In this document: positions 9,138-51,853 of the stretch, one piece after another | Position numbering within the stretch: the stretch's first letter is position 1 | Layout of the letters: each line of letters opens with the position of its first letter | Origin: an uncultured Planctomycetaceae bacterium | GTDB taxonomy: Bacteria; Planctomycetota; Planctomycetia; Gemmatales; Gemmataceae | Length of the DNA stretch: 64,000 bases | Assembly (NCBI GenBank): GCA_963771935.1 | Contig: CAVYVK010000011.1 | Coordinates: 1,302,127 to 1,366,126, forward strand | Reading direction: 5' to 3' | The notes under the pieces: model-generated | Databases searched by the model: none | What the model was told of the DNA's origin: nothing | What the model saw: only the letters and a program-made list of their open reading frames with translations | Translations under genes and position numbers: made by a program

Positions 9138-9206
9138 AAAAGAGAAAGCTCTTAACGCTTATTCTTCATTCTTCGTTCCTCCTTCAGCAGGAAGAGGAGA
9201 TCCATC

Positions 9207-26682: not shown

Positions 26683-26703
26683 GGCGCGGGAAAGGTTTCA
26701 CAA

Positions 26704-26762
26704 CCAGCCCCGAGCGCGAGCGAGGGGTTGGCGCCGGCCCCCTCGCTCGCGCTCGGGGCTGG
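26704..26762. repeat. Palindromic element, family 2 (24-bp stem)
   Basis: CCAGCCCCGAGCGCGAGCGAGGGG (26704..26727) pairs with CCCCTCGCTCGCGCTCGGGGCTGG (26739..26762). It lies 22 nt after the stop of the preceding gene. Confidence 0.9.
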
Positions 26763-26786
26763 TAGTAGAGAGAGGATAACTCCATC

Positions 26787-28019: not shown

Positions 28020-28042
28020 TCCCCAACACTCAGCGTAACGCT

Positions 28043-28115
<73 letters not shown>

Positions 28116-28124
28116 TTCCATGAG

Positions 28125-28153
28125 AACCTCCGATTCGTCGGAGGTTGTTTTTT
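28125..28153 (+). terminator. Rho-independent terminator after the tRNA
   Basis: AACCTCCGA-TTCG-TCGGAGGTT followed by GTTTTTT. Confidence 0.8.
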
Positions 28154-28206
28154 GTCGTTCAAAGGCCTGTCGTCCGTCAAATCGGTTCCTCCTCCGAGGA
28201 CGTTCC

Positions 28207-28938
28207 ATGACCGGCAAGACGCTTGCGGAAAACTATCTCGACGAGTCGCGGCGTGAGTTGGCGGCGTGCCTGGCGACGGTCAAGCACTGCCTGTCCCAGT
28301 TGGACGACGGCCAGGTCTGGCAGCGACCCCGACCGGCGATGAACAGCATCGGCAACCTGCTCCTGCATTTGTGCGGCAACCTGCGGCAACGGTTCCTATC
28401 CATCGTCGGAGGCGCGCCGGACGACCGTGACCGGCCCCGTGAGTTTTCCGAGCGAGGCCCGATCCCGAAGACCGAACTGCTGCTCCGGCTGGAGGAAGCG
28501 GTAGGCGCGTCGGACGCCGTGCTCGCCGGCCTTACCGCCGACCGTTTGCTGGAACAGAGGCGCTACGCCGGGCTGCGGGGGGAGTTGGAAGGTACGGTCC
28601 TGGCGGTCGTGCTGCGGACGCTGCTGCACCTGAGCGGCCACGTCCAGGAGATCGTGTACGCCACGCGCCTCCTGTTGGGCGACGCCTACCGGTTTCGGGT
28701 TCCGGCCTCGGCGTCGGCCGCGGCGCAGATCATCGCCGCCGATGACGTGGTGTTTGGGCGCGGCATGGTCCCGCCGCTTCCTGACCCGCCGACCCCACCC
28801 ACACCCCAGGGCGTGAAAGCTACGGGGCACAGGGCCGATGAAGACCCTACGTCCGACCACCGCGAGTCCCCGTTGCGCGACCCCTTGCTCGAACTGGAGC
28901 AGGAATTTCAGGACCAGCAGGACGAGGGCAAGCTGTAA
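28207..28938 (+). CDS. DinB-family (DUF1572-like) protein with extended C-terminal tail
   Basis: [41 protein letters not shown]...[14 protein letters not shown]...[13 protein letters not shown] shows the DinB four-helix His pattern. Confidence 0.65.
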
Positions 28939-29764: not shown

Positions 29765-31177
29765 ATGCTACTCACCATTACTACCACGCACCGGCTCGCT
29801 CTCGACCTCGGCTACCTGCTGCACAAGCACCCCGGCCGACTCCAGACATTCGACCTCAGCTTCGGCAAGGCCCACGTCTTCTACCCCGAGGCGGACGACC
29901 AGCGCTGCACCGCCTGCCTGCTGCTCGACGTGGACGCGGTGGACCTGGCCCGATCCGGCGGCCGTGAGCAACGCTTCCTGGCGGGCCATTACGTCAACGA
30001 CCGCCCCTACACGGCCTCTTCCTTTTTGAGCGTGGCGATCGCCCAGGTGTTCGGCTCGGCCCTCCAGGGGCGCTGCAAGGACCGGCCCGAGCTGGCGGCG
30101 TCGGCCATCCCGCTTTCCGCCCACATCGACGTGCTGCCGGTGCGCGGCGGCGAGCGCTTCCTGCGGGCCGTCTTCGAGCCGTTGGGTTACGCGGTCGAGG
30201 CCGCCCGCCGCCCGCTGGACGAGCAGTTCCCCGAGTGGGGCGACAGCCCGTACTTCTCCGTCGCCGTCCACAAGACGGTGGCTCTGTCGGAGCTGTTGAC
30301 GCACCTCTACGTTTTGATCCCGGTGTTCGACGGTCAGAAGCACTACTACATCGGCGACGACGAGATGGAGAAACTGCTGGCCAAGGGGGAGGGATGGCTG
30401 GCCCGACATCCCGAAAAGGAGGAGATCGCCCGCCGCTTCCTGAAACACCAGCCGAGCCTCTACCGCGAGGCGCTGGCGCGGCTGGTCCAGGAGGAGGCGC
30501 CGGCCGAAACCGAAGAGGGCGACGCACCCGCCCGAGAGAGCAACGAAGATGTTGTCGAGAAGCCGATCCGCCTCAACGAGCAGCGGCTGGGAGCGGTACT
30601 GGCGACCCTGCGGTCGAGCGGCGCGAAGCGAGTTTTGGACCTCGGCTGCGGCGAGGGGAGGTTGATCCGGGAACTATTGAAGGACAGGCAGTTCGAGGAG
30701 GTGGTGGGGCTGGACGTATCCATCCGCTCGCTGGAAGCGGCGCAGAGGCGGCTGAAGCTGGACCGGCTGCCGGCCAACCAGTCGGAGCGAATCCGCCTGA
30801 TTCACGGCTCGCTCATGTACCGGGACCGGCGGCTGGAGGGCTTCGACGCGGCGGCCGTGGTCGAAGTGGTCGAGCATCTCGACCCACCCCGGCTGTCGGC
30901 CTTCGAGCGCGTGCTGTTCGAGTTCGCCAAACCCCGGACGGTCGTGCTGACGACGCCGAACCGCGAGTACAACGTGAAATGGGAGACGCTGGGAGCCGGG
31001 CGCTTCCGCCACCCCGACCACCGCTTCGAGTGGACGCGGCAGGAGTTTCGGGACTGGGCGACGGATATTGGGGAACGGTTCGGCTATGTGGTGCGGTTTT
31101 TGGGAATCGGGCCGGACGCGGAAATGTTGGGAGCGCCGACGCAGATGGCGGTTTTTGAAAGGAATCGGATGGAGTAG
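29765..31177 (+). CDS. hen1: Bacterial Hen1, RNA 3'-terminal ribose 2'-O-methyltransferase
   Basis: The N-terminus MLLTITTTHRLALDLGYLLHKHPGRLQTFDLSFGKAHVFYPE is typical of bacterial Hen1. The C-terminal SAM methyltransferase motif is RVLDLGCGEGRL. pnkp lies nearby. Confidence 0.85.
   Translation: MLLTITTTHRLALDLGYLLHKHPGRLQTFDLSFGKAHVFYPEADDQRCTACLLLDVDAVDLARSGGREQRFLAGHYVNDRPYTASSFLSVAIAQVFGSALQGRCKDRPELAASAIPLSAHIDVLPVRGGERFLRAVFEPLGYAVEAARRPLDEQFPEWGDSPYFSVAVHKTVALSELLTHLYVLIPVFDGQKHYYIGDDEMEKLLAKGEGWLARHPEKEEIARRFLKHQPSLYREALARLVQEEAPAETEEGDAPARESNEDVVEKPIRLNEQRLGAVLATLRSSGAKRVLDLGCGEGRLIRELLKDRQFEEVVGLDVSIRSLEAAQRRLKLDRLPANQSERIRLIHGSLMYRDRRLEGFDAAAVVEVVEHLDPPRLSAFERVLFEFAKPRTVVLTTPNREYNVKWETLGAGRFRHPDHRFEWTRQEFRDWATDIGERFGYVVRFLGIGPDAEMLGAPTQMAVFERNRME
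31073..31098 (+). repeat. 26-nt direct repeat, copy 1 (inside the hen1 3' end)
   Basis: GAACGGTTCGGCTATGTGGTGCGGTT is identical to 31786..31811. Confidence 0.9.
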
Positions 31178-31186
31178 AATCCTAGG

Positions 31187-31765
31187 ATGCGCTCTGAAAT
31201 GACCGCACGACAGGCTTTTCACATGCTCGAGAACGAGACGCTCTGGGAACTCGCGGAGCGCGTTCACGCCTTGCTCGCGCGAACACATTGCCCACGCCAT
31301 CGTGGGCGGCGTTGCGGTCTGTCTTCACGGCTATCGGCGGAACACCGTGGACCTCGATTTGCTCGTCCGGCCCGAAGACGCGGCCGCCCTCCGTTCCGCG
31401 CTGGAAGCCGAGGGCTTCCGATGGGCCCCGCGGAGAAAGAATTTCGCTCCGCCGACGGCGCGGCCATCCAATTCGTGCTTGCCGGCGAAAGCGAGGGACC
31501 GGGGCAGGCGGCCCTGTTTCCCAGCCCAGGCGATCGGAAGCACGTAACCACAATCGAAGGATTGCCGGTCCTATCGCTCGCCCAACTGATCCAGTCCAAG
31601 CTGGCCTGCGGCCTGGGCAACCTGCGCCGCACCCATAAGGACTTCGCCGACGTCGTCGAGCTGATCGCGTTCCACCGCCTGGACGGCTCCTTCGCGCGAT
31701 TCTTGCACAAGTCGGTTCGCAAGGAATTCCGCGAACTCGTTCGCCGCGCGGCCGGTCAGAAATAA
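31187..31765 (+). CDS. AbiEii-like/Pol-beta-fold nucleotidyltransferase, two frameshifts as assembled
   Basis: The reconstructed sequence is ...IAHAIVGGVAVCLHGYRRNTVDLDLLVRPEDAAALRSALEAEGF... (ORF 31302) flanked by the N- and C-terminal parts in ORF 31187. The G-G-x-A...R-x-T-x-D-L-D motif matches the nucleotidyltransferase fold. Confidence 0.55.
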   Translation: MRSEMTARQAFHMLENETLWELAERVHALLARTHCPRHRGRRCGLSSRLSAEHRGPRFARPARRRGRPPFRAGSRGLPMGPAEKEFRSADGAAIQFVLAGESEGPGQAALFPSPGDRKHVTTIEGLPVLSLAQLIQSKLACGLGNLRRTHKDFADVVELIAFHRLDGSFARFLHKSVRKEFRELVRRAAGQK

Positions 31766-31785
31766 GCCCCGTCGCCGTGAGCCGA

Positions 31786-31811
31786 GAACGGTTCGGCTAT
31801 GTGGTGCGGTT
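31786..31811 (+). repeat. 26-nt direct repeat, copy 2
   Basis: Identical to 31073..31098. Confidence 0.9.
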
Positions 31812-31887
31812 CGTGGCCGTCGGGCCGGAGGATGCGGGGTTGGGACCGCCGACGCAAATGGGGATCTTTGAGCACGACCAAAGGTAA
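31786..31887 (+). pseudogene. Displaced relic of an alternative hen1 3' end
   Basis: It encodes ERFGYVVRFVAVGPEDAGLGPPTQMGIFEHDQR-stop, against ERFGYVVRFLGIGPDAEMLGAPTQMAVFERNRME-stop at the real hen1 end. An in-frame stop lies just upstream. Confidence 0.75.
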
Positions 31888-31895
31888 ATGCCGAC

Positions 31896-32384
31896 ATGCC
31901 CAGCATCAAGGAATGGATGCGAATGTTTGCGAGCAACAAGCGCGAAGTCAAGCTTCGTGCCGCGAGGGCGCTTTTGCATCGCGCCGACGAAGCACCTCTG
32001 CGGCTTCTGGTCGAAATCCTTCAAAATCTATCTCAAGAAGGATTGGGTGCACAGACCGAAAAAGCGCTGCTGCAACGCCGGGATGCAGAACTCGTCCTGA
32101 AAATGATCGGTCTGCTTGAATCGCCCGATCCTTTCGTCAGGCAAGCGGCTTGCAATGTTCTTGGTCGTTTTGGAGACAGGGCAGTTACGCCACACCTCCT
32201 TCGCATGATCGACGATCCGCACCTGATGGTTCGGCGAGCGGCTGGTTTCAGCCTTGCTTTCCTGAAAGATCCATCATCGCTGCCCGAGCTAAAACGGCAG
32301 TATGAACGCCACCGTGATGACGATTCCAACGTCGTCATGGCTCTTCAGCGCGCTCTGCAAAGTCTCGGTGAAAAGGAACCATGA
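31896..32384 (+). CDS. Small HEAT/PBS-lyase-type repeat protein
   Basis: The repeats LLESPDPFVRQAACNVLGRFGDRAVTPHLLRMIDDPHLMVRRAAGFSLAFL are HEAT-like. GC is visibly lower than its neighbours. Confidence 0.6.
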   Translation: MPSIKEWMRMFASNKREVKLRAARALLHRADEAPLRLLVEILQNLSQEGLGAQTEKALLQRRDAELVLKMIGLLESPDPFVRQAACNVLGRFGDRAVTPHLLRMIDDPHLMVRRAAGFSLAFLKDPSSLPELKRQYERHRDDDSNVVMALQRALQSLGEKEP

Positions 32385-33330
32385 TGGACCGGGTGCATTA
32401 CCCTCCCGATTTGATCTTCTCCGTCGGCACGCAGGTCGTGACGCTGGTGGACATCCCCGCCCCCGCCGGCTTCATCCACCACCCGCGCGGCACGGTCGGC
32501 GTCGTCGTGAAGGCGCCGACCGACTCCGAGCATTCCTACCGGGTCCGCTTCCCCGACGGCTTCGAGGCGGCGCTCAAGCGGGGCGAGGTGACGATGCTGG
32601 CCCGGTTCAAGGAGGGCGAGATCGGCGACGGCGCCGATTCGGTCGCCTGGAACGACCTGTACGAGCGCGTCATCTATCGCTGCGTGATCGGCTCGCAGGC
32701 ATATGGCCTCGCCGACGCCGAGTCGGACGTGGACCGCCGGGGCATTTACTTGCCGCCCGCCGAGCTGCACTGGTCGCTCTACGGCGTGCCGGAGCAACTG
32801 GAGAACGACGCGACCCAGGAGGCGTACTGGGAGATTCAGAAGTTCCTCGTCCTGGCGCTCAAGGCGAACCCGAACGTCCTGGAGTGCCTCTACACGCCGC
32901 TGGTCGAGAAGGCGACGCCGCTGGCCGAGGAACTGCTGGCGATGCGGTCGATCTTCCTGTCCCGGCTGGTCTACCAGACCTACAACGGCTACGTGATGTC
33001 GCAGTTCAAGAAGATGCAGGCCGACATCCGCAACCAGGGCCAGGTCAAGTGGAAGCACGTCATGCACCTGATCCGGCTGCTGCTGTCGGGCATCGGCGTG
33101 CTTCGCGAGGGCTTCGTGCCGGTCCGGGTGGACGAGCATCGGGACCGGCTGCTGGCGATCCGGCGCGGCGAGGTGCCTTGGGAGGAGGTGGAGGACTGGC
33201 GGCTCGCCCTGCACCAGGAGTTCAACGCCGCCTTCGAGGCCACGAGGCTGCCGGAGCGCCCGACTACGAGCGCGCCAACGCCTTCCTGGTTCGCGCCCGG
33301 CGACTGGCCCTGGCGGAGGAGTTGCCGTGA
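32381..33330 (+). CDS. Pol-beta-type nucleotidyltransferase (PF10127/RlaP-like, from memory), one frameshift near 33255
   Basis: The motif is CVIGSQAYGLADAESDVDRRGIYLPP. The C-terminus ...LPERPDYERANAFLVRARRLALAEELP lies in ORF 32302..33330. An ATGA overlaps the HEAT gene stop. Confidence 0.6.
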
Positions 33331-33342
33331 TTCCGATCCCGC

Positions 33343-34085
33343 TTGCTGAAAAAGCAGGTTGAACAGCACCCGTACCCGCTGCTCTTCGCCACGATCAGCG
33401 GGGCGCACCTGTACGGCTTCCCCTCGCCGGACTCGGATTTCGACCTGCGCGGCGTCCATCTGCTGCCGCTCCAGGAGGTGGTCGGCCTCAAGACCGGCCC
33501 GGAGACCGTCGAGAAGTCGGGAATCCACGACGGCCTGGAGATCGACCTGGTGACGCACGACGCTCGGAAGTTCTTCGGCCTGCTGCTGAAGAAGAACGGC
33601 TACGTGCTGGAGCAGGTGTTCTCGCCGCTGGTCGTCCACACGACGCCGGAACACGCCGAGCTGAAGGAGATCGCCGCCGAGCTGCGTCACCCGCCACCAC
33701 GCCCACCACTACCTGGGCTTCGCGGAGACGCAGTGGAAGCTGTTCGCAGAAGGAGAACCCGCCGCGCGTCAAGCCGCTGCTGTACGTCTACCGCGTGCTG
33801 CTGACCGGCATTCACCTGATGCAGACGGGCGCGGTCGAGGCCAATCTCCTTCGCCTGAACGAGTCGGCCAGGCTGCCGTACCTCGACGACCTGATCGGCC
33901 GGAAGCTGGCCGGCGCGGAGAAGACCGTTCTCGTCGAGGTGGACCTCGACTTTCACCGGGGCGAGTACGAGCGCTTGCGCGGCGAGCTTCAGGCGGCGTC
34001 CGAGGCGAGTTCGCTGCCGGAATCTCCTCGGGCGAGTGAGGCGCTGCACGATCTGCTGGTCCGACTGCGGCTGCGTGGGCTTTGA
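33343..34085 (+). CDS. Second Pol-beta-type nucleotidyltransferase (paralogous family), at least two frameshifts
   Basis: The motif is ATISGAHLYGFPSPDSDFDLRGVHLLP. The tail ...LLTGIHLMQTGAVEANLLRLNE...HDLLVRLRLRGL lies in ORF 33795..34085. Confidence 0.55.
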
Positions 34086-34113
34086 GACCGGCGTCCTCCC
34101 TTTTCCGTGTGGA

Positions 34114-36720
34114 ATGATGATAATATCGATCCCCAAACTCAGCATTGTCGTCCTCATCGGCCCCAGCGGCGCTGGCAAGAGCACCTTCGCGCGCAAGCAC
34201 TTCCTGCCCACCGAAGTCCTGTCGTCGGACGCCTGCCGGGCGATGGTGGGAGACGACCCGAACGACCAGGCCGTCACCCACGACGCCTTCGAAGTGCTGC
34301 ACCACGTCGCCGCCAAGCGGCTGGCGCTGGGCCGGCTGACGGTGATCGACGCCACCAATGTGCAGCCCGAGGCCCGCAAGCCGCTCGTCGAACTGGCTCG
34401 GCGTTACTACTGCCTGCCGGTCGCCGTCGTGCTGAATCTGCCTGAACGGCTCTGCCAGGACCGCAACCGCCAGCGCGACGATCGCAACTTCGGTCCCCAC
34501 GTCATCCGCCAGCAGCAGTCCCAACTGCGCCGGTCGCTCCGGGCTCTCGGCCGCGAGGGCTTCCGTCACGTTTTCGTGCTGGAGACGCCGGAAGAGGTGG
34601 AAGCCGCCGTCGTCGAGCGCGTGCCCCTGTGGAACGATCGATCCGGGGAACGCGGCCCCTTTGACGTCATCGGCGACGTTCACGGCTGTTGCGACGAGCT
34701 GGAGGAGTTGCTCCGGCGGCTCGGCTACACGGCGATCAGGCTGGGGGACGCCGATCCCCTGTGGGGCGATCGCTATTTCGCCCATCCGGAGGGCCGTAAG
34801 GCCGTATTCGTCGGCGATCTGGTGGACCGCGGCCCCCGCGTCCTCGACGCCGTGCGGCTGGTGCGCAACATGGTCCACGGCGGCGCGGCCCTGTGCGTCC
34901 CCGGCAACCACGACATGAAGCTGCTGCGGAAGCTCCGGGGCAAGGACGTGCAGGTCACGCACGGCCTGGCCAACTCTCTCACGGAGATCGAGTCTCTGCC
35001 GGCCGAGGTGCGCGAGCCGTTCCGCAAGGCGCTGGCGGACTTCCTCGATGGCCTGGTGAGTCACTACGTCCTCGATGGCGGCAAACTGGTCGTGGCCCAC
35101 GCCGGGATGAAGCAGGAGATGCAGGGGCGCGGCTCCGCCAAGGTGCGCGACTTCGCGCTGTACGGCGAGACCACCGGCGAGACGGATGAGTTCGGTCTGC
35201 CGGTGCGCCAGAACTGGGCGGCCGAGTACCGGGGCCAGGCGATGGTCGTCTACGGCCACACGCCGGTCCCCGAGCCGGAGTGGCTGAACCGGACGGTCAA
35301 CATCGACACCGGCTGCGTCTTCGGCGGGAAGCTCACGGCCCTGCGTTACCCGGAGAAGGAATTCGTATCGGTGCAGGCCGCCCGCACATATTGCGAGCCG
35401 GCGCGGCCCTTCCTCCCCGACGACCGGAAGGCGCCGGCGCTCACGGCCCAGCAGGCCCACGACGCGGTCCTCGACGCCGACGACGTTCTCGGCAAGCGCA
35501 TCATCTCGACGCAGCTGCGCGGCAACGTCGTCATCAGCGAGGCGAACGCCGCCGCCGCCCTGGAAGTCATGAGCCGGTTCGCGGCCGACCCGAAATGGCT
35601 CATCTACCTGCCGCCGACCATGTCGCCGTGCGAGACGAGCGACGAGGCCGGCCTGCTGGAGCATCCCGCCGAGGCGTTCGCCTATTACCGCAGCCAGGGT
35701 GCGCCGAAGGTGGTGTGCGAAGAGAAGCACATGGGATCGCGGGCCGTGGCGGTCGTCTGCCGCGACGAGCAGGCGGCGCGGGAACGCTTCGGCGTGACCG
35801 AGGGCGACAGCGGCGTGGTCTACACCCGCACGGGCCGGCGCTTCTTCAACGAGCCGGACCTGGAGCGGCCGTTCCTGGACCGGCTCCGGGCCGCGCTGTC
35901 CGCCGCCGATTTTTGGGCCGCGTTGGAGACGACCTGGGTCTGTTTGGATTGCGAGCTGATGCCGTGGTCGGCCAAGGCTCAGGAGCTGCTGCGGAACCAG
36001 TACGCGGCGGTTGGGGCCGCCGGGCGCGCCTCGCTGCCAAAGGCCGTGGCGGCCCTGGAGCAGGCCGCCGCACGATTGGCCGGCGACGACAAGGACAAGG
36101 CCGAACGGATCGCCGACTCGTACCGCCGTCAGGAAGAGAACGTCGGCAAGTTCGTCGCGGCCTACCGGCGCTACTGCTGGCCGGTGGCGGCGCTGACCGA
36201 CCTGAAGCTGGCGCCGTTCCACCTGCTGGCCACGGAAGGGCGCGTCCATACGGACAGGGACCACGTCTGGCACATGGAAACGTTGGCCAGGGTGTGTCGG
36301 GAAGACCCGCAACTGCTGCTGGCGACGCCTCATCGGGTCGTTGACGTGACGGAACCGGCCGGCGAAGAAGCGGGGGTCCAGTGGTGGGCGGAGCTGACCG
36401 AGCGGGGCGGCGAGGGCATGGTGGTCAAGCCGCTCGCCTTCCTGCATCGGGGGAATCGGGGGCTCGCCCAGCCGGCCGTGAAGTGCCGAGGCCGCGAGTA
36501 CCTGCGCATCATCTACGGCCCCGAGTACACGACGGACGAGAACCTCGCGCGCCTGCGGAGCCGAGGTCTGGGCCGGAAGCGGTCGCTGGCGCTCGGCGAG
36601 TTCGCGCTCGGCGTCGAGGGGCTGGAGCGGTTCGTGCGGAGGGAGCCGCTGCGCCGCGTCCATGAATGCGTCTTCGGCATCCTCGCGTTGGAGAGCGAGC
36701 CGGTGGACCCGAGATTGTGA
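34114..36720 (+). CDS. pnkp: Polynucleotide kinase-phosphatase/ligase Pnkp
   Basis: Kinase P-loop VVLIGPSGAGKST; metallophosphatase motifs GDVHGCCDEL, GDLVDRGP and PGNHD; adenylyltransferase (ligase) lysine motif EEKHMGSRA. The domain order is as in bacterial Pnkp. Confidence 0.85.
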   Translation: MMIISIPKLSIVVLIGPSGAGKSTFARKHFLPTEVLSSDACRAMVGDDPNDQAVTHDAFEVLHHVAAKRLALGRLTVIDATNVQPEARKPLVELARRYYCLPVAVVLNLPERLCQDRNRQRDDRNFGPHVIRQQQSQLRRSLRALGREGFRHVFVLETPEEVEAAVVERVPLWNDRSGERGPFDVIGDVHGCCDELEELLRRLGYTAIRLGDADPLWGDRYFAHPEGRKAVFVGDLVDRGPRVLDAVRLVRNMVHGGAALCVPGNHDMKLLRKLRGKDVQVTHGLANSLTEIESLPAEVREPFRKALADFLDGLVSHYVLDGGKLVVAHAGMKQEMQGRGSAKVRDFALYGETTGETDEFGLPVRQNWAAEYRGQAMVVYGHTPVPEPEWLNRTVNIDTGCVFGGKLTALRYPEKEFVSVQAARTYCEPARPFLPDDRKAPALTAQQAHDAVLDADDVLGKRIISTQLRGNVVISEANAAAALEVMSRFAADPKWLIYLPPTMSPCETSDEAGLLEHPAEAFAYYRSQGAPKVVCEEKHMGSRAVAVVCRDEQAARERFGVTEGDSGVVYTRTGRRFFNEPDLERPFLDRLRAALSAADFWAALETTWVCLDCELMPWSAKAQELLRNQYAAVGAAGRASLPKAVAALEQAAARLAGDDKDKAERIADSYRRQEENVGKFVAAYRRYCWPVAALTDLKLAPFHLLATEGRVHTDRDHVWHMETLARVCREDPQLLLATPHRVVDVTEPAGEEAGVQWWAELTERGGEGMVVKPLAFLHRGNRGLAQPAVKCRGREYLRIIYGPEYTTDENLARLRSRGLGRKRSLALGEFALGVEGLERFVRREPLRRVHECVFGILALESEPVDPRL

Positions 36721-36813
36721 CGCGAACGTCGGCCGCCGGTTGCGATTCGCCCGGACGGCCGTTATTCTTCCCAGTAGAGTTCGCCGCCCCTTTCGCTTCC
36801 TCCGGCCCCGGTC

Positions 36814-39281
36814 ATGCCCGAAGGCGACAAGCACGATCCGCAATCGCTCACCGCTCCGGCGCCCCGGCCGAGGTGTTGCTCGTCTGCCCGGAGTGCGGCG
36901 CGCCCCTGGCCGCCGGCCTCTACGAAGCGCATCTCCGCCAGGCCCATCACCTCTATTTCTTCCGCGGCGTCCGCCGCACCTACACGGCGACCCTCGCCCA
37001 CCTGCTCAACCTCCTCGCCGAGACGCCGCCCGACGCGGACGCCTGGCGCGTGCTGGCGCTCCTCATGCGGGAGGAACACGGCGCCCGCGCCCCCACGGTC
37101 CTCGCCGCCCTGCTCGGCGCCCTGCTGACCCGTGTGGACGACGACCGGCGGGGCGCCGCCGTGGACGCGCTGGCGGTGCTGCTGGCCGACGACGACCTCC
37201 GCCTGACGACGGCGCTCGCCGCCGACGGCGAAGCCGCGGCGCGGCGGCTGGCGCTGGCCCTGGTCGCGCGGCAGACGCCGCCGTTCGATCCGGCGCTGTT
37301 GCAACCGCTGCGCGGATCTGCTGCTCGACCGCCGCCTGCCCGTCGAGGCGCAGTTCGCCGCCCTCGCCGCTCTGTTGCGCTCGGCCGGCCCGGACGGCCC
37401 GCTCGCCGCCGAATTCCTCCGCAAGCTCGTCGGCGGACTCGGCAAGGCCCGCTCCGTGAAGCGGCTGAGCGAATACGCGCGTCTCCACGGCCCCTCGCCT
37501 ACCATCGACGCCCTCTGCACGGAACTCGAAGAGCGGATGCGCATGAGCTGTCCGCGCTGCTCCGTCCAGCTGCGGCGGCCCGCGATGATACGCCACTTGT
37601 GGGACGAACATCGTCTGATTCTTGACGGCCGCCGCGTCCGCGATCCCTGGGCGGTGATCGGGGACTGGATCATCGAGCATCGCGCGACGGGCGACGCCGA
37701 GCTGCTGGAACGCTGCCGGCTGCGCGGCGTGCAGCTCGATCCCGAGGGCGGGCTGCACCGCGTCCACCGCCTGTTGCTGCGAACCGGGGCCGACGACGCC
37801 GAAGCGCGGCGCGGCCTCGTCGCCGAGGCCCGCGAGCGCCACGCCTCGCTCTGCCCGTGGTGCTTCGCCCTGGCGCCGCAGCCGCGCGAGGCGCCGCCGC
37901 TGGCGATCAACCTCCGGCCCGGCCGGCTCTCCGCCGGCGGCTACGAGATCGAGACAGGCTCCAAAGGGATATGGACTACCCTCGAAGTCCGTGCGCCGGG
38001 CCGTGCCCTGTTTCCACGGTCGTGAGGGCGCGATGGCGCCTGACGCGGCGCGGGGCGACGCTCTTCCTCGTCGGCCCTCTGGCGGCGCCGACGCTGGCTG
38101 CGGCCGTCGCCTGGACGGCGAGTGGTTTGGACATTTGTCCTCTTTCTTGTCCGCCTTCCTGACAGGGGCGGCGCTGCTGCTGCAATGGCGGGTCCGACGA
38201 CAATGGGCCGCCGGACGGCGCGCCGCCGATGCGGCTGGTGCGCCGCGCCTGGACGCACCTCGCGCCGCACCTGCACGAATCGGAATTCCGCCCGGAAGAC
38301 TCCGCATTCCTCGCCGGCCTGGCGCGGGCGCACGCCGCCCGGCGCCTTTCGGCAGCAGCGGGCGCCGCTGCTGACCGCGCTGCTTGAAGCGCACGGAGGA
38401 CGCCGTCGTCGCCGGCCTGGGGCCGCCCGGATGCCTTGCCGCCCTGCGCCGCCTCATGGTCGAGGACGCCGCCGCCGTTCGGCGCCGACCCGTGCCGCTC
38501 GTCGCCGACCAGCTCGCCCGCTGTTTCGAGGGCCGTCTGCCCTTGGTCTACGCGGAACATCTGCTGGCCGGCTGGCGCTCCCCCTGGTGGACGGCCGGCA
38601 ACCTCGTCCGGCTCCACGTGCTGCTGTGCGACCATGCCTTCGAGGCGGGCTTCGAGGTGAGCAACCTTCTCGACGCCGGACAGACGGTCCCGGCCCTCGG
38701 TGAGGTGTTGGGGACGAACGACCCGGCCGGCCTGGCGGCGCTGCGGCTCTTGTGGTCGCAGCGGCCGACGCGGCCCTGGGACCACTGCGGCGAGGCGCGC
38801 ACGGTCTTCGACTTGGCCGCGGAACCCGGCCGCGCCGACCTGCTGGGCCGGCGCCCCGATCTGCTCCTGTGGCAACGCGAGCCGCAATGGGTGATCGCGG
38901 CGGAGGGCGGCGACGAGCCGATGCGCGAGGTCGAGATCATGCTCTGCACCGGCGGGGTCTGGTTGCAGGAAGTGCGGTTCACTGCGCCCGCCGGCGACGA
39001 TTGAGGAGACGTACCGGGCGTTCGGCGGTTCGCTGGTGCTGGGCGAGCATCGCTTCCGCGGGGCGGCCGAGATCGACGCGCTGGCCCGGCGCATGGAACG
39101 GTGGTTCCGCTTCGCGTTTGCGGACTTCCTGCCGCGGACGGCCGACGTGCGGACGTGGCGGTCGCCGGAACGGGCGGCCATCCTGCGAGCGTGGGGCGCG
39201 GCCGCGTGCCCGGAATGCGGCTACTACCATCTCGCGCGGGTCGGCGCGGTCGGCGTCGCCCTGGACGAGGCGGCCCAATGA
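36814..39281 (+). CDS. Large hypothetical protein with C2H2-like zinc-finger motifs, at least six frameshifts as assembled
   Basis: CPECGAPLAAGLYEAHLRQAH and CPRCSVQLRRPAMIRHLWDEH share the spacing CxxC-x11-H-x4-H. CPWC and CPECGYYH are also present. A hydrophobic segment lies near 38040..38190. The protein is traceable through ORFs 36814, 36666, 37375, 37857, 37991, 38384 and 39036. Confidence 0.45.
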
Positions 39282-39282
39282 A

Positions 39283-39341
39283 CCAGCCCCGAGCGCGAGC
39301 GAGGGGTTCGGTCGAACCCCCTCGCTCGCGCTCGGGGCTGG
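39283..39341. repeat. Palindromic element, family 2 (28-bp stem)
   Basis: CCAGCCCCGAGCGCGAGCGAGGGGTTCG (39283..39310) pairs with CGAACCCCTCGCTCGCGCTCGGGGCTGG (39314..39341). It lies between convergent genes. Confidence 0.9.
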
Positions 39342-39358
39342 TAGGGAAGATAATACTA

Positions 39359-40075
39359 CTACACCCTTAACAGAGCGTCAATATCTCCTCCAGGCCGGAC
39401 GTCCACCGGCTCGCGGCCCTTGCGGAGCACCCGCGCCGGGGCGCCGATCAGCTCGGCGCCGCCCGGCTCGATGCGCAGGACGCCGCCCTCCCACAAGCCG
39501 ATCACCGGCGTGTCGTTCATCTCGTGGAACTCGCGGATGCGCTCGTCGCGCGTCTCGCCGAAGTGTGGCACGTAGGTCTCGCCGCTGCGGAGGAAGAATT
39601 GCCCCTCGTAATAGTGCGCATTGACCTGGAACGGAACCAATCCCAGGGCGGTGAAGCTCGGCGGCTGCACGATCGGCATGTCGTTGGTGGTCTTCAGGGT
39701 CGGGCAGGCCACGTTGCAGCCGGCGCTGATTCCCAGATACGGTGCGCCGTCCCGCACGCGCTCGCGGATCGGCTCCAGCAGGCCATGCCGGTACAGCGCG
39801 TCCAGCAGCCGGAACGTGTTGCCGCCGCCGACGTACAGCCCCTCCGCCCGGCGAACCGCGTCGGCGAGGTCGGGGTGGTTGTGAATCGGGTCCAGCTCGT
39901 AGCCGGCATGGAGGCCGCGCTCGACCAGGGCCGGCGCATAGCCGTCGAGGTTTCCCGCGGCGTACGGCACGAACAGCAGCCGCCGGATCGACCCGAAAAA
40001 CGACCGCATTTGGTGCGTGATAACGCCGACCCGCTCCGGCGTCCGAAATCCGCCGCTTCCCAGCAGCACGCGCAT
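39359..40075 (-). CDS. pepE: Dipeptidase E (peptidase S51)
   Basis: MRVLLGSGGFRTPERV...LYVGGGNTFRLLDALYRHGL...YLGISAGCNVACPT shows the S51 Ser nucleophile context. Confidence 0.8.
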   Translation of the reverse strand: MRVLLGSGGFRTPERVGVITHQMRSFFGSIRRLLFVPYAAGNLDGYAPALVERGLHAGYELDPIHNHPDLADAVRRAEGLYVGGGNTFRLLDALYRHGLLEPIRERVRDGAPYLGISAGCNVACPTLKTTNDMPIVQPPSFTALGLVPFQVNAHYYEGQFFLRSGETYVPHFGETRDERIREFHEMNDTPVIGLWEGGVLRIEPGGAELIGAPARVLRKGREPVDVRPGGDIDALLRV

Positions 40076-40089
40076 CGCCGACTCTCCTT

Positions 40090-43000
40090 TCAGTCGCCCA
40101 CCCGCGCCCCGACCGTCGCCAGCTCGTTGAACCGATCGACCGATTCGCCCGCCGACCACGCGATGCCGCGCAGCAGTAAAATGCGGTACAGCGGATCGTC
40201 GAAGGTCCAGGTGAAATGGCCCGGAATGCTGACGAAGACGCGGCCCTTGCCCTGCTCGCGCGTCCAGAACAGCGGCTGGGGCTTGCCCTCCTCGACGCCG
40301 GTCGCCAGCACGTCCACCTTGGCCGGGTCGCCCGTCAGGTTCCAGTAGCTCTCGTCGTCGAGTTCCAGTTTGTCGAAGTTACGGGCGATCGGGTGCTTCG
40401 AGCCGCCGAAATCCAACATCTGCGTGCCATGGCGGTACTTCGCCCCCTTGCCCCACGCCAGGCCGATCCGGACGGCGTACTCCTCCGGCGCCTCGCCGCC
40501 GTTCACGCCCCAATGGATCAGAACCAGCCCGCCGCCGCGCTCGAGAAAGGCGTCGAGTGTCCTTGGCCTTGTCGGCCTTCCAGCCGGGGTTGCTGGAGTA
40601 CATCACGACCACGTCCGCCTTCTGCCACTGCTCGGCGGTCGGCCAGCCCTCGGCCGTCTCCACCGTCACGCCGTCGGCCAGCGCCAGCAGCGTCTTCCAG
40701 CGCTTCTGCCACAAAGGATAGTCGTGTTCTCCCGGCCCGTGGTCTTTCGAACCGGCCGACAGGACGATGCGCAGCTTGCGGGCGTCGGCCGCGGGCGGCG
40801 CTGCCCTTCAACGCCGCCTCCACTTCGGCCATCTTGCGCGGCGGCGGCGGCCCGTCGCGCTCCAGCTTGGCCGGCTGCAACGGCTCCGTCAGCAGGAACG
40901 TGAGCAGGTCGCGCATCCGCTCCGGCCCCACGGTTTTTTCCAGCCCTTCGGGCATGATCGACAGGGCGGACGGATGCAGCGCCTCCACGTCGGAGCGGCG
41001 GATGCGATATTCCCGCCCTTGCGTGTCGCCTATTATCAGATCGTCGCCCTCGGTGCGCGGCACGCCGGTCAAAACGCGGCCGTCCTTCATCTCGACGAGG
41101 CAAGTGAGATAATCGGGATGGATCGTGGCGCTTGGAAGGCGGATGTCGCGCCGGACGGACTCGTAATCGCGGTGGATCAGGTTCGACAGGTCGGGGCCGA
41201 TGCGGCCGCCGCGGCCGTGGACCTGATGGCACTTCGCGCACTGGGCCTGGTCGCTGAAGAAGACCGAGCGGCCGCGCGCCCAGTCGCCGCCCTTCAGCTC
41301 GGGGATTTCCCGGTCGGCGTCCAGCGCGGCGTCGGCCGGCCGCGTCAGGGCCGCCCAGGGCAGGAGCAGCCGATGCAGCGGCAGCGCCCGCGGCCGGTCG
41401 TCCTCATTCGTCGAATAAGCGACGTGGAGGTCCGCATCCTCGCCGGTTTGCAGCGAGATTTCCAGCGGGTATCGGCTCGTCCTTCTTCGGCCGCATTTTC
41501 AGGGTGATCCGTGGCTTAAACTTGACCGAGCCAACGATACCGACGGAGGCAAGCTTCCTGACGTCCGGCGGCGTCGTTATTTCCAGACGGCGGGCAGGAC
41601 TGAAGTTTAGCTCTACTTCCTCATCGGGCAGCGTGTAATCGAGTGTCGATCCCGGCTGCACCGCCGGGCGCAGCATTTGCCACAGGTCGAGCTTGGTGCG
41701 CAACGTCAGCGTCCCCGGTTGCTTCATCAATTCCCACAGCCGATCGTGTTCCGCGCTGCCGGCGGTGAACGCGCGGGCGACCGATAGATCGAGATGAGGC
41801 AGCCAACCGTCCCAGGTTCCGCCGCCGGACTTCGCGCGCCACGACGCTTCCACGCCGGACAAATCGTATCCGACATCGACGGCGGCGACCTGCGGCAGCT
41901 CGCCGGCGCCGGGCTTGTCGGGCCGGCCGAAGCCCTCCAGCGTCAGCGCGTAATCGACCGCTTCCGGCTGGGCGTCGGTGGTCAGGATGAGCGTGCGCCG
42001 GTCGCCGCTGACCTCCGCCGAGCGCACGGCCAGGCCGTAGCGCGGCGTCGCCAGCTGGCGCCGCACCGCTTCATAGCCGGGCCGCTTTTGCTCGAAGCGG
42101 TCGCCGGGCCGGACGTACTTGCCGTACTCGATGCTCGCCCGGCTCGCCAGGTCCTTCAGCTGGGCCGGTGCGAGAGGGGCGTCGAAGGCGACGCGCACTT
42201 CATGCGGCCCGGCCGCCCACGCCGTCACCGGCTGCGGCGTCCCTTTACCGACATAGGCGATCTTGTAGAGCTTGCCGTGACCGGCCGGCCCGGTCCCCCA
42301 GTCCGGCTCGCCGCTGTGGCAGTCCACGACCAAGTCGCCGGCCGGCGACACGCAGCAATCCAGCGTCAACATACCCAAGCACGCCAACAGGTCGGTGCGG
42401 CCGACGTAGCCGGCCGGCGTACGGACCAGCTTGGTGCGGAACAACTTGCCGCGCGAATAGCCGGCGATGAGGGCGTCGCCGGCCCACCACGACGGCCCGA
42501 AGATCGGTCCCTTGTTGACCGACTCGTCGAAGACCAGGCCGCAGGTGGATTGGTGCTGCGGGCCGTAGTCGAAGACGCTCGGCTCGTCGATGACATTGGG
42601 GAGGTGTTTTGGGTGCCGCGGCGGGAAGCCGTAGTGGCGGCCCGGCTGGATGTGCAGCAGCTCGTCGAACGGGTTGCCGTTGGCCAGCCACGTCGCCCCC
42701 TCCTGGTCGGTGGCGAAAAGGTCGCCGTCGCGGTTGAACGCCAAGGCGACGGTGAAGCGGACGCCGGTGCAGACGATCTCGCGTTTCGAGAAGTCGGGCG
42801 ACACCTTGAGGATCGTGCCGCGTTCGCTCTTGAGGTCGTAGTGAGCCTGCCCCGCTTTGTCGATCAGGTAGGGGTTGGTGTAGTCGGCGGTCCCCAGGCC
42901 GAAATAGAGATTGCCGTCTTTGTCGAGGGCGACGCCGAGGGCGTCCACGTTCTGCGGGATCTCCTTCCAGCCCGTGGCGACGACGATCTCCTTGTCGGCC

Positions 43001-44212
43001 TTGCCGTCGCCGTCCGTGTCCACGATGAGGGAGATTTTGCCCTTGGACGCGACGAAGACGCCTTGGCCGCGCGGATAGCCGGGCGGCGTCAGCGCCATGC
43101 CGATCGGACTGCGCAGGGCGCCCTTGCTCTCCCAAAACAGGTCCGCCTTGTCTTCCAAGCCCGTCTTTTTGCTGTCCGATAACAGGTAAATGTCGCCGTT
43201 GTAGGCGAGGGCGACCAGCTTGCCGTCGGGCCGGTAGCGGACGTTGTTGATGTTCGGCAGATCGAGGGGCAGTGGGCGGACGACGAAGCCGGGGACGAGG
43301 ATCTGCACCGGCGGCGGATCGGCGACGAGGACGAGCGGTTTGGCGCCGATCGATCCGCGCGGCGCCGCGATTTTGGCGGTCTTGCCCTGGCGACGGCGAG
43401 GTAATCGTCCAGCTTCTTGAGTTCCTCGTCGCTGAGGGCGCGGTCGTAAATGAGGACTTTCAGGATCGCACAAGAGAGGAAGCAGCGAACGCTGGCGGGG
43501 CCGCCTTCATTGTTGAAGCAGCGCGCGCCGACCACGAAGTCGTCCAGGTGCAGCACGCCGTCGCCGCGATCGCGCTGGCCGTTGGGCTTGCCGTCGGCGA
43601 AAAGCCGCACGCCGCCGGGGCCGGAGGCGGTCACGATCGCCAGCCGCCGCACGGCGCCGAAATCGGAAGCGTCGCGCAACAGATTGGCCGCGCCGCTGCA
43701 GCCGGCGCCCTCGACGTTCAGCGTGGAGAATCGAGGGGTCGTTCCGGGACCGAGGTCGATGTTCAAGCCTGTGGTATAGTCGTTTTTGCCGCTCTGGTTC
43801 AGCGCCAAAAGGCGCGAAAATCGCCGGAATCGTCGAACGGGGCCGCGACCAGGACGACGGTCGCCTGGGGGAACGACCGCCCCAGGCCGGTCAACGCCAG
43901 GTGGGTTCCCTCGCCGGAGAAGAGGAGGGCGGGCGCGTCGCCGCCGAGGAAGGTCGGCCGAGCGCCGGCGTTCAACTGCGTCGGGTCGCGGCCGCGGCCC
44001 GAGGCGTCGTACCAGGTTTCGACCTTATCGCCATCCACAAGCTCCTTTTCTCCATGCACCCGGCGCGCGGCGTTCAGCCGGCCGGCGTCGAGCCACAGTT
44101 GCAGACCGTCCGTGACGGGCAAGGCGGGGTCGGCCCATTTTTCCGGCTTGTCGCCCGCCCACGCCGGAGCGGCGATGATCAGGAGCAGCAACGCGAGGAC
44201 GCGACGGGACAT
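40090..44212 (-). CDS. Multidomain secreted protein: LamG-like + beta-propeller dehydrogenase-like + cytochrome c + ThuA-like; at least five frameshifts
   Basis: The signal peptide is MSRRVLALLLLIIAAPAWA. The propeller region is GFPPRHPKHLPNVIDEPSVFDYGPQHQSTCGLVF. The heme motif is QCAKCHQVHGRGGRIGPDL. The ThuA-like C-terminus is WQKRWKTLLALADGVTVETAEGWP...VFVSIPGHFTWTFDDP. The protein is traceable through ORFs 43799, 43089, 41404, 40518, 40379 and 40090. Confidence 0.7.
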
Positions 44213-46371: not shown

Positions 46372-47396
46372 TCAGGCGGCCCGGTTCGTCGCACCCGGCA
46401 CGATCCGCACGGCGTTGCCGTGGTAGACGCGATCGAGCACGTCGTCCGGCAGGTCCAGGCCGAGCAGCGGCGGTGTGGAGGGGCCGTCGGGCGCCGACGT
46501 GTAATCAGGGTCGGCGATGGGACTGCAGCCTTGCCAGGCGCTCTCCCAAAGGGTGCGCTGCGCCCAGTAGCGGCTGACGTAATGCTCGCGCGTCAGGCCG
46601 TGGCGCGTCACCAGATCGGAGCCGAACAGGAAGCGCTCGGGCTTGCGCATCACCAGCGCGGATCGCGTCGCGGTGGGCCGAAACCTCGCGCACTTGCCAT
46701 TTCGTCGCGCTGGTGTCCAGGTAGAGATGGGGATGCCGGTCGAGCAGCGCCTCCAGGTGATCGGCGTGTTCAGGATCGCCGCCCATGTGCGCGGCGATCC
46801 AGGTCATATCGGGGAACAGCTCCAGCATCCGCACGAGGCCGGTGTATTGATCGGGCTTCGTGCCGTACTTCGCCGCGTCGGCGTAGACCTTGTGGAACCA
46901 CACGTCGGGGTCGCTGACGTGGACCATGACGACGCGGACGCCGGCCGCGCGGGCGCGGCGCCGCCTCGATCCGCCACGGCGCGTCCACGAAAAGACCACG
47001 ATCCCGGCCGCGCGGCGCGGACCAGAACTTGATGACATCGACGCCCTGCTCTAGGAACCGATCGAGCAGCCGATAGGCCTCGTCGTCCGGCGCATCGAGC
47101 GCCTTTTTGCTGATGGGGCCGTTGAAGCGCAGCCGGTCGCCGAAGCGCTGGCGCAGCGCCGGAATGTCCTCCGGGGGACACATGGAATAGGTTTGCACGA
47201 CGCCGAACTCAGCGGCTGTCGCCAGCATGGTTTCCGCCTGGGCGACGGTCCACTCGGAATCGTCCTTGCTGCCCTCCGGCCGGGTGCGCAGGACGTGGGC
47301 GTGAACGTCGATGATCGGGCCGGCGTAGCGCAGGTGACGGCGGTCGGCGAAGTCCTGGCCGGTGACGTTGTGTTCGGGCGTAGCGGCGGACGACAT
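46372..47396 (-). CDS. Amidohydrolase-family (TIM-barrel metal hydrolase) protein, two to three frameshifts
   Basis: GPIIDVHAHVL (metal-binding HxH) is in ORF 46770..47417. VMVHVSDPDVWFHK...WIAAHMGGDPEH is in ORF 46505..47038. FLFGSDLVTRHG is in ORF 46372..46653. Confidence 0.65.
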
Positions 47397-47412
47397 GACG
47401 GCTCCGACAAAA

Positions 47413-47529
47413 TTCACCGCGGAGAGCGCGGAGAACGCAGAGAAAACAATCAGGAACGCTCCAAAGGTATTATACTGCCTTCGTCATTCCTTTTCTTCTC
47501 TCCGCGCTCTCCGCGCTCTCCGCGGTGAA
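47413..47529. repeat. Imperfect long hairpin with GGAGAGCGC-type internal repeats and an AT-rich 50-nt loop
   Basis: TTCACCGCGGAGAGCGCGGAGAACGCAGAGAA pairs with TTCTCTCCGCGCTCTCCGCGCTCTCCGCGGTGAA. The first 22 bp pair perfectly. Confidence 0.8.
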
Positions 47530-51632: not shown

Positions 51633-51723
51633 CCTGGCGAGCGGGGGGCGTCAGCCCCCTGATTCCGCATGGCGTCGCCGACCGGATGCCGAATCAGGGG
51701 GCTGACGCCCCCCGCTCGCCAGG
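51633..51723. repeat. Long hairpin (33-bp stem, 25-nt loop), nested in a weaker outer palindrome (about 51596..51747)
   Basis: CCTGGCGAGCGGGGGGCGTCAGCCCCCTGATTC (51633..51665) pairs with GAATCAGGGGGCTGACGCCCCCCGCTCGCCAGG (51691..51723). The outer GTCGAAATCCT/AGGATTTCGAC also pair. Confidence 0.9.
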
Positions 51724-51746
51724 ATTTCGACGGAGCAAAGTAGCTT

Positions 51747-51814
51747 CCCAACCAGCCCCGAGCGCGAGCGAGGGGGAGGCGCCTCCCCCTCGCTCGCGCT
51801 CGGGGCTGGTTGGG
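51747..51814. repeat. Palindromic element, family 2, loop-less perfect 68-bp palindrome
   Basis: CCCAACCAGCCCCGAGCGCGAGCGAGGGGGAGGC (51747..51780) is directly followed by its reverse complement (51781..51814). Confidence 0.9.
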
Positions 51815-51853
51815 AAACCCTTTGACAATGGGAATCACGGTTGTGAATGAGTC

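Follow-up and report, generated by a model that had tools for sequence, protein, structure and literature searches.

The bacterial Pnkp/Hen1 system, described from Clostridium thermocellum and Anabaena variabilis, is a model for the undoing of ribotoxin damage. Here we analyse a locus of this type in a 64,000-nucleotide stretch from an uncultured Planctomycetaceae bacterium (GenBank assembly GCA_963771935.1, contig CAVYVK010000011.1), hereafter the window, within which all positions are counted. Like the described systems, the locus encodes all Pnkp and Hen1 domains in co-oriented genes with hen1 upstream, but it differs from them in that the two core genes lie 2.9 kb apart, the gap being taken up by three nucleotidyltransferase genes, a gene for a short HEAT-repeat protein and a relic of hen1. 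Two of the three nucleotidyltransferases, RlaP1 and RlaP2, fall into the RlaP family (PF10127), which was reportedly named by Burroughs and Aravind in 2016, and the third is called NTx in the following.

RlaP of Pseudomonas adds one or two nucleoside monophosphates to RNA 3′-OH ends, prefers damaged RNA and raises the aminoacylation of repaired tRNA that is missing a nucleotide, and it has been proposed to counter ribotoxins such as RloC and PaOrf2, which cut and then trim nucleotides (bioRxiv 10.64898/2025.12.29.696909). According to the same preprint, 5′-phosphate ligases can use the 3′-OH end made by RlaP directly and RlaP is also found in their operons. Nucleotide addition to damaged RNA has so far been shown for RlaP only as a single enzyme in RtcB operons. 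The Pseudomonas RtcB-RlaP-RtcA operons (Carruthers, Fatma and Huang 2025) resemble the window locus in placing a Pol-beta enzyme of the same Pfam family within an RNA-ligase operon, presumably to restore 3′ nucleotides that have been lost. The window, however, holds two divergent, co-travelling paralogs, an extra N-terminal beta-rich domain and a dedicated HEAT protein, and its ligase, Pnkp (5′-P/3′-OH), would use the 3′-OH end made by RlaP directly, whereas RtcB does not. A two-gene repair core that gains a helical-repeat scaffold and a Pol-beta nucleotidyltransferase is also seen in the RFH-RtcB systems, which accrete both (Burroughs and Aravind 2019, PMC6514570), but there the core is made up of RtcB and a release-factor homolog, the scaffold is of the TPR type and the nucleotidyltransferase is stated not to be RlaP. 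The Pnkp1-Rnl-Hen1 complex (Wang et al. 2015, PMC4411300) is likewise a Hen1-centred system that extends beyond two proteins; in it, ligase and Pnkp are separate proteins and hen1 is encoded at a distance, whereas the Pnkp of the window is the classical fused enzyme. Since the link of RlaP to RNA-ligase operons and the activity of RlaP have both been published, the locus is a richer variant of a known system. The co-inheritance of RlaP1 and RlaP2, the dedicated HEAT protein, the recurrence of NTx and the view of the hen1-pnkp gap as an exchange slot appear to be undescribed, the Burroughs and Aravind 2016 survey being left out of account.

Judging from gene content and layout, it is fairly probable that positions 29765-36720 make up one co-oriented RNA-repair operon, in which accessory modules have been inserted into the gap of the Hen1/Pnkp core. 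Its parts are the following:

29765..31177, plus strand: hen1, RNA 3′-terminal 2′-O-methyltransferase with an N-terminal Pnkp-ligase-activating domain; intact.
31187..31765, plus strand: NTx, minimal nucleotidyltransferase of the Pol-beta superfamily, 193 amino acids (aa); read in frame 2, then 0, then 2.
31786..31887, plus strand: hen1 3′ relic, ~100 nt of a second hen1 allele, ERFGYVVRFVAVGPEDAGLGPPTQMGIFEHDQR*, ending 8 nt before the HEAT start.
31896..32384, plus strand: HEAT gene, 162 aa, five repeats; intact, its stop codon overlapping the RlaP1 start (ATGA).
32381..33330, plus strand: RlaP1, PF10127 nucleotidyltransferase (151.6 bits) with an N-terminal beta-rich domain of ~75-95 aa.
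33327..34085, plus strand: RlaP2, second PF10127 paralog, ~251 aa, without the N-terminal domain.
34114..36720, plus strand: pnkp, 5′-kinase, 2′,3′-phosphatase and ligase/adenylyltransferase in one protein; intact.

The identity and coordinates of the two core genes, which had been proposed in a sequence-only reading of the window, were borne out by comparison with curated equivalog models, against which both are full length. That is, hen1 scored 702 bits against TIGR04074 (cut-off 340) and pnkp 1409.6 bits against TIGR04075 (cut-off 750; positions 2-851 of 851). In Pfam, hen1 matched Hen1_L at 372.8 bits (profile positions 1-241 of 242) in addition to methyltransferase domains, and pnkp matched AAA_33 (106 bits), Metallophos (49 bits) and PNKP_ligase (614.8 bits). 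The Pnkp protein is 88% identical at the aa level to that of a Gemmataceae metagenome-assembled genome (MAG). For comparison, 80 pnkp loci were fetched, one genome per species, from many phyla. Among them hen1 was upstream of pnkp and on the same strand in every locus that holds both genes (71 of 71), including those of Nostoc and Calothrix, relatives of Anabaena. The sequence-only reading had taken the pnkp-first order to be normal and the window locus to be rearranged; because hen1 precedes pnkp in all 71 loci, the locus is not rearranged, and an explanation in terms of a rearranged order was discarded. Of the 71 loci, 37 have their core genes no more than 60 nt apart, and in 25 the distance exceeds 300 nt. 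Within the 2.9 kb that separate them in the window, the intervening genes are joined by small gaps or overlaps. No convincing terminator-like site was seen between the genes or after pnkp, in a scan that is uninformative in a genome so rich in guanine and cytosine (GC), and the search for terminator and promoter consensus sequences gave 11 weak matches (5.8 expected by chance), all within coding sequence. A check of gene neighbourhoods in relatives revealed that the RlaP pair, HEAT and NTx all recur beside pnkp or hen1. The earlier proposal of a larger RNA-repair system is supported for these intervening genes and not for the zinc-finger gene that follows pnkp, which is dealt with below.

Both Pol-beta-type genes upstream of pnkp were indeed found to be PF10127/RlaP paralogs, as the sequence-only reading had proposed. 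Against the PF10127 cut-off of 23 bits, RlaP1 reached the score given above, and RlaP2 scored 105.1 bits in its given form, rising to 184.1 bits once its frames were repaired (positions 9-249 of 249). The two proteins retain the Pol-beta catalytic signature, GS/SG...SDxD plus a downstream acidic residue, in the form GSQAYG...SDVD...YWE in RlaP1 and SGAHLYG...SDFD...EIDLVTHD in RlaP2, and each form is conserved across orthologs. Identity between RlaP1 and RlaP2 is 25-33%, and that of each to its own orthologs in other lineages is 57-85%. The GTG start codon of RlaP2 at 33327 overlaps the stop codon of RlaP1 (GTGA), and RlaP2 ends 28 nt before pnkp, with a likewise close ligase-gene neighbourhood in loci L002, L035, L037, L082 and L168. 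The N-terminal domain of RlaP1 was found in 425 representative clusters, and in nearly all of the 150 listed clusters it was located at or near the N-terminus of proteins no longer than 339 aa. When the PDB was searched by sequence with RlaP1, no RlaP structure came up, and the only match was a weak one to a Tudor domain (2l8d, E=0.086). In loci from Gemmataceae, Planctomycetaceae, Tepidisphaeraceae and Longimicrobiaceae, hen1 and pnkp enclose the RlaP pair, which flanks or lies near hen1/pnkp in loci from Verrucomicrobiota and Symbiobacteriaceae and in one unclassified MAG. The same RlaP1-RlaP2 arrangement as in the window is shared by L082, a locus that is 95% identical to it.

Upstream of the pair, the low-GC HEAT-repeat gene and its ATGA overlap with the first RlaP gene (positions 32381-32384), both of which had been noticed in the sequence-only reading, were confirmed. 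The gene matched HEAT_2 in Pfam at 64.9 bits (cut-off 27.7), its GC content is 57-58% as against 64-70% in the flanking genes, and its GC content at third codon positions (GC3) is also below that of its neighbours. The structure model of the protein (predicted local distance difference test score, pLDDT, 96.9) has ten helices in a generic alphaRep/HEAT fold, with template-modelling (TM) scores of 0.75-0.78 to alphaRep HEAT proteins. This short HEAT family is small, with 39 close matches among 5.8 billion proteins, and in three of four other, independent contexts its gene is directly upstream of an RlaP1-RlaP2 pair, two of these contexts being hen1...pnkp operons. The layout is hen1-HEAT-RlaP(316)-RlaP(255)-65aa-pnkp in L168/L169 and hen1-137aa-kinase-Thg1-HEAT-RlaP-RlaP, reaching the contig end, in L171; L170 has HEAT-RlaP-RlaP, with hen1 and pnkp absent within 7 kb. 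The member in L173, the most distant one (57% identity, 211 aa), is unlinked. The HEAT/RlaP1 and RlaP1/RlaP2 overlaps are 4 nt each in the window, L168, L169 and L171, and the HEAT/RlaP1 overlap is 8 nt in L170. The recurrence of both overlaps indicates that HEAT-RlaP1-RlaP2 is a conserved, translationally coupled module, and the trio probably forms a complex. In L170, the stand-alone trio (L170:5705-9217) adjoins a divergent gene for a dual-specificity-phosphatase-like protein (weak PF22784/PF00782 matches).

NTx had been described as an AbiEii-like nucleotidyltransferase, of which the nucleotidyltransferase part stands and the AbiEii part does not. No match was found to the AbiEii model PF08843 in Pfam, nor any in NCBIfam or PADLOC, and a precomputed PF08843 match exists for one of 120 NTx homologs. 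By its profile scores, NTx is a borderline PF14907/PF10706-type nucleotidyltransferase, with 30.0 bits against PF14907, just below the cut-off of 31.2, and 22.6 bits against PF10706 (cut-off 21). Three-frame reading placed frame switches near 31290 and near 31440, and the frame-repaired protein aligns over its full length (100%) with intact 193-aa proteins at 87% identity, in a family of 1542 matches. The structure model of a homolog, P0121 (pLDDT 88), has the MenT1 toxin, ANT(2'')-Ia and LnuA as its nearest folds. The best PDB matches are the MenT1 entries 8an4/8an5 (TM 0.58-0.62, E about 3e-5), and ANT(2'')-Ia, LnuA and TM1012 score nearly as well. MenT toxins act on tRNA 3′ ends, and MenT1 (Rv0078A) is also similar in size (~190 aa). 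NTx nevertheless differs from the MenT1/AbiEii toxins in its low identity (16-19%), in lacking a Pfam AbiEii match and an adjacent antitoxin, and in having RNA-repair neighbours.

These neighbours are a recurrent trait of its closest relatives. NTx of the window lies between hen1 and the hen1 relic, and homologs of at least 70% identity occur as hen1-NTx-303aa-pnkp in L087, hen1-NTx-pnkp in L096, NTx-RlaP-RlaP in L088 and the context of P0131, and RlaP1-RlaP2-NTx in L090. In none of these contexts, including the window, was a conserved small antitoxin-like partner found beside NTx. We therefore rejected NTx as an AbiEii member or toxin-antitoxin toxin on account of the missing PF08843 match, the missing antitoxin partner and a MenT1 fold match that is only moderate. 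From its associations, NTx probably acts on RNA 3′ ends as a third recurrent accessory. An apparent 161-aa gene of unknown nature beside NTx homologs was also dismissed, as it corresponds to the C-terminal half of a hen1 with a frameshift. The initial tblastn search of the 80 species loci had detected NTx in none of them and HEAT in L050 alone; the notion that NTx and HEAT are strain-specific junk was reversed after their own families had been searched and the contexts read.

Beyond the window, the contents of the hen1-pnkp gap vary from genome to genome, and judged by its predicted occupants the gap repeatedly accommodates RNA-end enzymes. The occupants found were:

RlaP1-RlaP2 pair: L002, L005, L035, L037 and L052; split around the core in L036 and L040; nearby in L049.
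Long-form HEAT family: L006, L036, L038 and L041.
HEAT protein of 557 aa: L052.
Short HEAT protein as in the window: L050.
Thg1 plus P-loop kinase: L040.
Rnl-type ligase plus HD-kinase: L004.
ADP-ribosylglycohydrolase: L005.
DUF4291: L001.
MazE: L018 and L024 (Pfam-confirmed); L025 and L026 (tblastn homologs, 85-86% aa).
PIN: L051.
LRR protein: L017.
OLD-like ATPase plus DUF3226: L061.

Most of these are RNA-end-processing enzymes or helical-repeat proteins, and a minority look selfish or defence-type. In L004 (695-2640), a Rnl-type RNA ligase (PF09414) and a protein combining HD and P-loop-kinase parts are located between hen1 and a full-length pnkp, which means that this locus has two ligases and two kinases. 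The ADP-ribosylglycohydrolase gene of L005 (8936-9991) lies between RlaP2 and pnkp, and DUF4291 is found in the gap of L001 (9293-9943); both are candidates for further RNA-end-cleaning functions. The cyanobacterial gaps (L018, L024, L025 and L026) hold a MazE-type antitoxin-like gene. Given MazE, PIN and the OLD-like ATPase with DUF3226, genes of the toxin-antitoxin or defence type share the slot.

The relic and the comparison with L082 allow the history of the window locus to be partly reconstructed. The hen1 3′ relic, noted earlier and confirmed at about 31786-31887, showed by blastn 84.5% identity to the 3′ end of hen1 in L001 and 81% to that in L002, and no blastn match to hen1 of L082. 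The orthologous HEAT gene of L168/L169 is preceded, at a distance of 1 nt, by an intact hen1. L082 does not have a 1227-bp block (31160-32386, comprising NTx, the relic and HEAT), on either side of which it matches the window at ~95% identity, and its hen1 overlaps RlaP1 directly; NTx, relic and HEAT are therefore either dispensable or recently gained. The hen1 gene of the window is ~96% identical in nucleotide sequence to that of L082, save for the last 100 nt, where identity is 86%. We infer that the ancestral layout was hen1-HEAT-rlaP1-rlaP2-pnkp, as kept in L168/L169, and that most of hen1 was then replaced by a hen1-NTx segment from another cassette, which would have left the relic in front of HEAT. 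The simplest reading of L082 is that it either lost the NTx-relic-HEAT block or represents the state before its gain. A comparable arrangement was seen in L115 (1394-2384), a second, unrelated locus, where a ~110-aa hen1 3′ fragment comes after an NTx homolog (58% identity) and the gene upstream of them is not hen1. NTx-bearing DNA may recombine repeatedly into hen1.

By homology to the characterised enzymes, Pnkp would phosphorylate the 5′-OH end of a broken RNA, remove the 2′,3′-cyclic phosphate and seal the break, and Hen1 would 2′-O-methylate the 3′-terminal nucleotide before sealing, so that the repaired junction would resist re-cleavage. By analogy with the Pseudomonas enzyme, RlaP1 and RlaP2 may add back one or two nucleotides to the 3′-OH of the 5′ fragment after trimming by a ribotoxin, a step that would fall after the phosphatase step of Pnkp and before methylation by Hen1 and ligation. 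The two paralogs would be non-redundant, the small HEAT solenoid could serve as an adaptor or scaffold, and NTx, a minimal enzyme of MenT1/ANT(2'')-like type, might be a further nucleotidyltransferase for RNA 3′ ends. A more far-reaching proposal, which we consider possible though doubtful, is that HEAT-RlaP1-RlaP2 constitutes an obligate, portable three-subunit 3′-end machine, with a Tudor/SH3-like N-terminal domain on one RlaP paralog and HEAT as the dedicated adaptor. Such a trio would plug into Hen1/Pnkp operons and also exist alone. The gap would then be a site of module exchange at which counter-ribotoxin modules (the RlaP pair, NTx, Thg1 plus kinase, an extra ligase, ADP-ribosylglycohydrolase) are swapped, and NTx, as a third RNA-end nucleotidyltransferase, would have been recruited for repair and not for toxicity. 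The locus and its relatives point to a larger assembly, in which two RlaP paralogs, HEAT and sometimes NTx are attached to Pnkp. If true, this would explain how breaks with removed nucleotides are repaired and would suggest why two RlaP paralogs are kept; moreover, the hen1-pnkp gap, as a hotspot for the exchange of RNA-end modules, could be a practical guide to further repair factors.

A number of observations weigh against the reading of 29765-36720 as one extended repair operon. About 12 of the 80 pnkp loci have any RlaP gene within 10 kb, and the closest Gemmataceae species locus, L001, is without RlaP and has DUF4291 in its gap. The 95%-identical L082 consists of hen1-RlaP1-RlaP2-pnkp, which means that neither NTx nor HEAT is required. 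NTx homologs that are more distant (below 66% identity) lie for the most part away from RNA-repair genes, the roles proposed for HEAT and NTx derive from gene neighbourhood only, and the gap elsewhere houses the apparently selfish or defence genes listed above. Several of these points would fit a different explanation, namely that the gap is a tolerated insertion site, in which NTx, the relic, HEAT and perhaps also RlaP are passengers or selfish genes, a MenT-like toxin for instance, that arrived through recombination and are functionally untied to Hen1/Pnkp. The absence of the 1227-bp block from L082, the low GC and GC3 of the HEAT gene (57% GC), the recombination breakpoint at the 3′ end of hen1 together with the relic, the MazE, PIN, LRR and OLD-like ATPase/DUF3226 genes in the gaps of other genomes, and the MenT1 toxin as best fold match of NTx are all in line with it. 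Other observations speak against it: a HEAT family of 39 members abuts RlaP1-RlaP2 with overlapping stop and start codons in three of four other contexts, the RlaP pair is repeatedly found with hen1/pnkp in several phyla, and close NTx homologs repeatedly adjoin hen1, pnkp or RlaP, with no conserved small antitoxin-like partner. Furthermore, other occupants of the gap are RNA-end enzymes (Thg1 with a kinase, Rnl ligase with HD-kinase, ADP-ribosylglycohydrolase). On balance, we regard the passenger explanation as unlikely.

The state of the reading frames raises another alternative. The sequence-only reading had run through frameshifts and had taken NTx, RlaP1, RlaP2 and the zinc-finger gene to be intact open reading frames; as given, they are frame-broken, with two breaks in NTx, one in RlaP1, three in RlaP2 and at least five in the zinc-finger gene. 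In RlaP1, a 1-nt deletion near 33259 relative to L082 shifts the last 23 codons, such that the given frame runs to 33349, whereas the true end is the TGA at 33328-33330 and the C-terminus, DYERANAFLVRARRLALAEELP, is recovered in frame 1. RlaP2 carries 1-nt insertions at 33341, 33680 and 33748, located by DNA alignment with L002, L005 and L035 and by the list of indels relative to L082. If these indels were real, RlaP2 and NTx would be dead genes in this strain, which also counts against the extended operon. The accessory genes could then be genuine pseudogenes and the operon in decay, with hen1, HEAT and pnkp alone functional. That hen1 (1.4 kb) and pnkp (2.6 kb) are unbroken while NTx, RlaP1, RlaP2 and the zinc-finger gene are all broken, that the extra bases are found outside homopolymer runs, and that the hen1 relic shows sequence to have been lost at the locus before are consistent with decay. 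The same kind of damage, however, extends to genes unrelated to the locus. A codon-usage Viterbi scan detected ~20 frame switches across the 64-kb window, which suggests an indel-prone, perhaps long-read, assembly. Stop-free switches split apparent single genes for a vWA/TadG-like protein (9204-12077), a PSCyt/ThuA-type giant protein (40094-43808, minus strand), an amidohydrolase (46375-47459, minus strand) and an FGGY kinase (48274-49780), and the FGGY_N and Amidohydro_2 domains match end to end only once the frames are joined. L082, for its part, carries different indels of its own, including a 2-nt deletion in the P-loop region of pnkp. Over positions 32387-40118, at 95% identity, the two sequences differ by 22 indel events in 7.7 kb, mostly 1-nt insertions in the window outside homopolymer runs. 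Fourteen of these are in the ~2.5 kb of the zinc-finger gene (72-77% GC), where some are errors of L082, and one, again L082's own, is in pnkp. Moreover, the shifted segments of the window all retain a strong GC bias by codon position and are 85-96% identical in aa sequence to their orthologs in L082, and each broken protein is rebuilt to full length by frame repair with no in-frame stops to be bridged. Because similar indels break housekeeping genes window-wide, assembly error is the likeliest cause of the breaks in NTx, RlaP1 and RlaP2, and decay of the operon in this strain seems quite improbable to us.

Downstream of the operon proposed here lies the gene that the sequence-only reading had included in the repair system:

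36814..39281, plus strand: zinc-finger gene, Gemmataceae protein of ~820 aa carrying CxxC...H...H motifs and hydrophobic in its middle region; split over five or more frame segments.

This gene was confirmed to lie 94 nt beyond pnkp, and its bounds fit those of an intact homolog, P0001 (830 aa, 87% identical). The protein shows CxxC-x12-H-x4/5-H motifs (CPECG...HLRQAH, CPRCS...HLWDEH) with no match to a Pfam or NCBIfam family, and some homologs are labelled 'uncharacterized C2H2 Zn-finger protein' by JGI. The family is conserved and well populated in Gemmataceae. Among five other contexts of its homologs, adjacency to pnkp was seen only in L082; the remaining four, all from Gemmataceae (L081, L083, L084 and L086), have unrelated neighbours, with no hen1, pnkp or RlaP, and the gene is therefore a neighbour only. 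There were no tblastn matches to it in the 80 pnkp loci, and it was dropped as a component of the system. The homolog in L081 is followed by the same peptidase-E gene that lies downstream in the window.

On the other side, a tRNA-Ala(CGC) gene was located at about 28042-28116, 1.6 kb upstream of hen1, and was the only hit in an Rfam scan of the whole window, which revealed no non-coding RNA partner. PADLOC gave no meaningful defence-system matches. A DinB-like reading frame of 272 aa at 28120-28938 was considered as a conserved member and rejected, being common to L001 only. It is absent from L082, where a block of phage terminase genes is found on the corresponding side. The tRNA-Ala flank may be an integration or variable site. 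Finally, blastn revealed a ~65-nt repeat at 26696-26765, 39281-39349 and 51722-51819, one copy being just past the stop codon of the zinc-finger gene, with two copies in L082 and occurrences on both strands; this could be a palindromic intergenic repeat or a terminator element.

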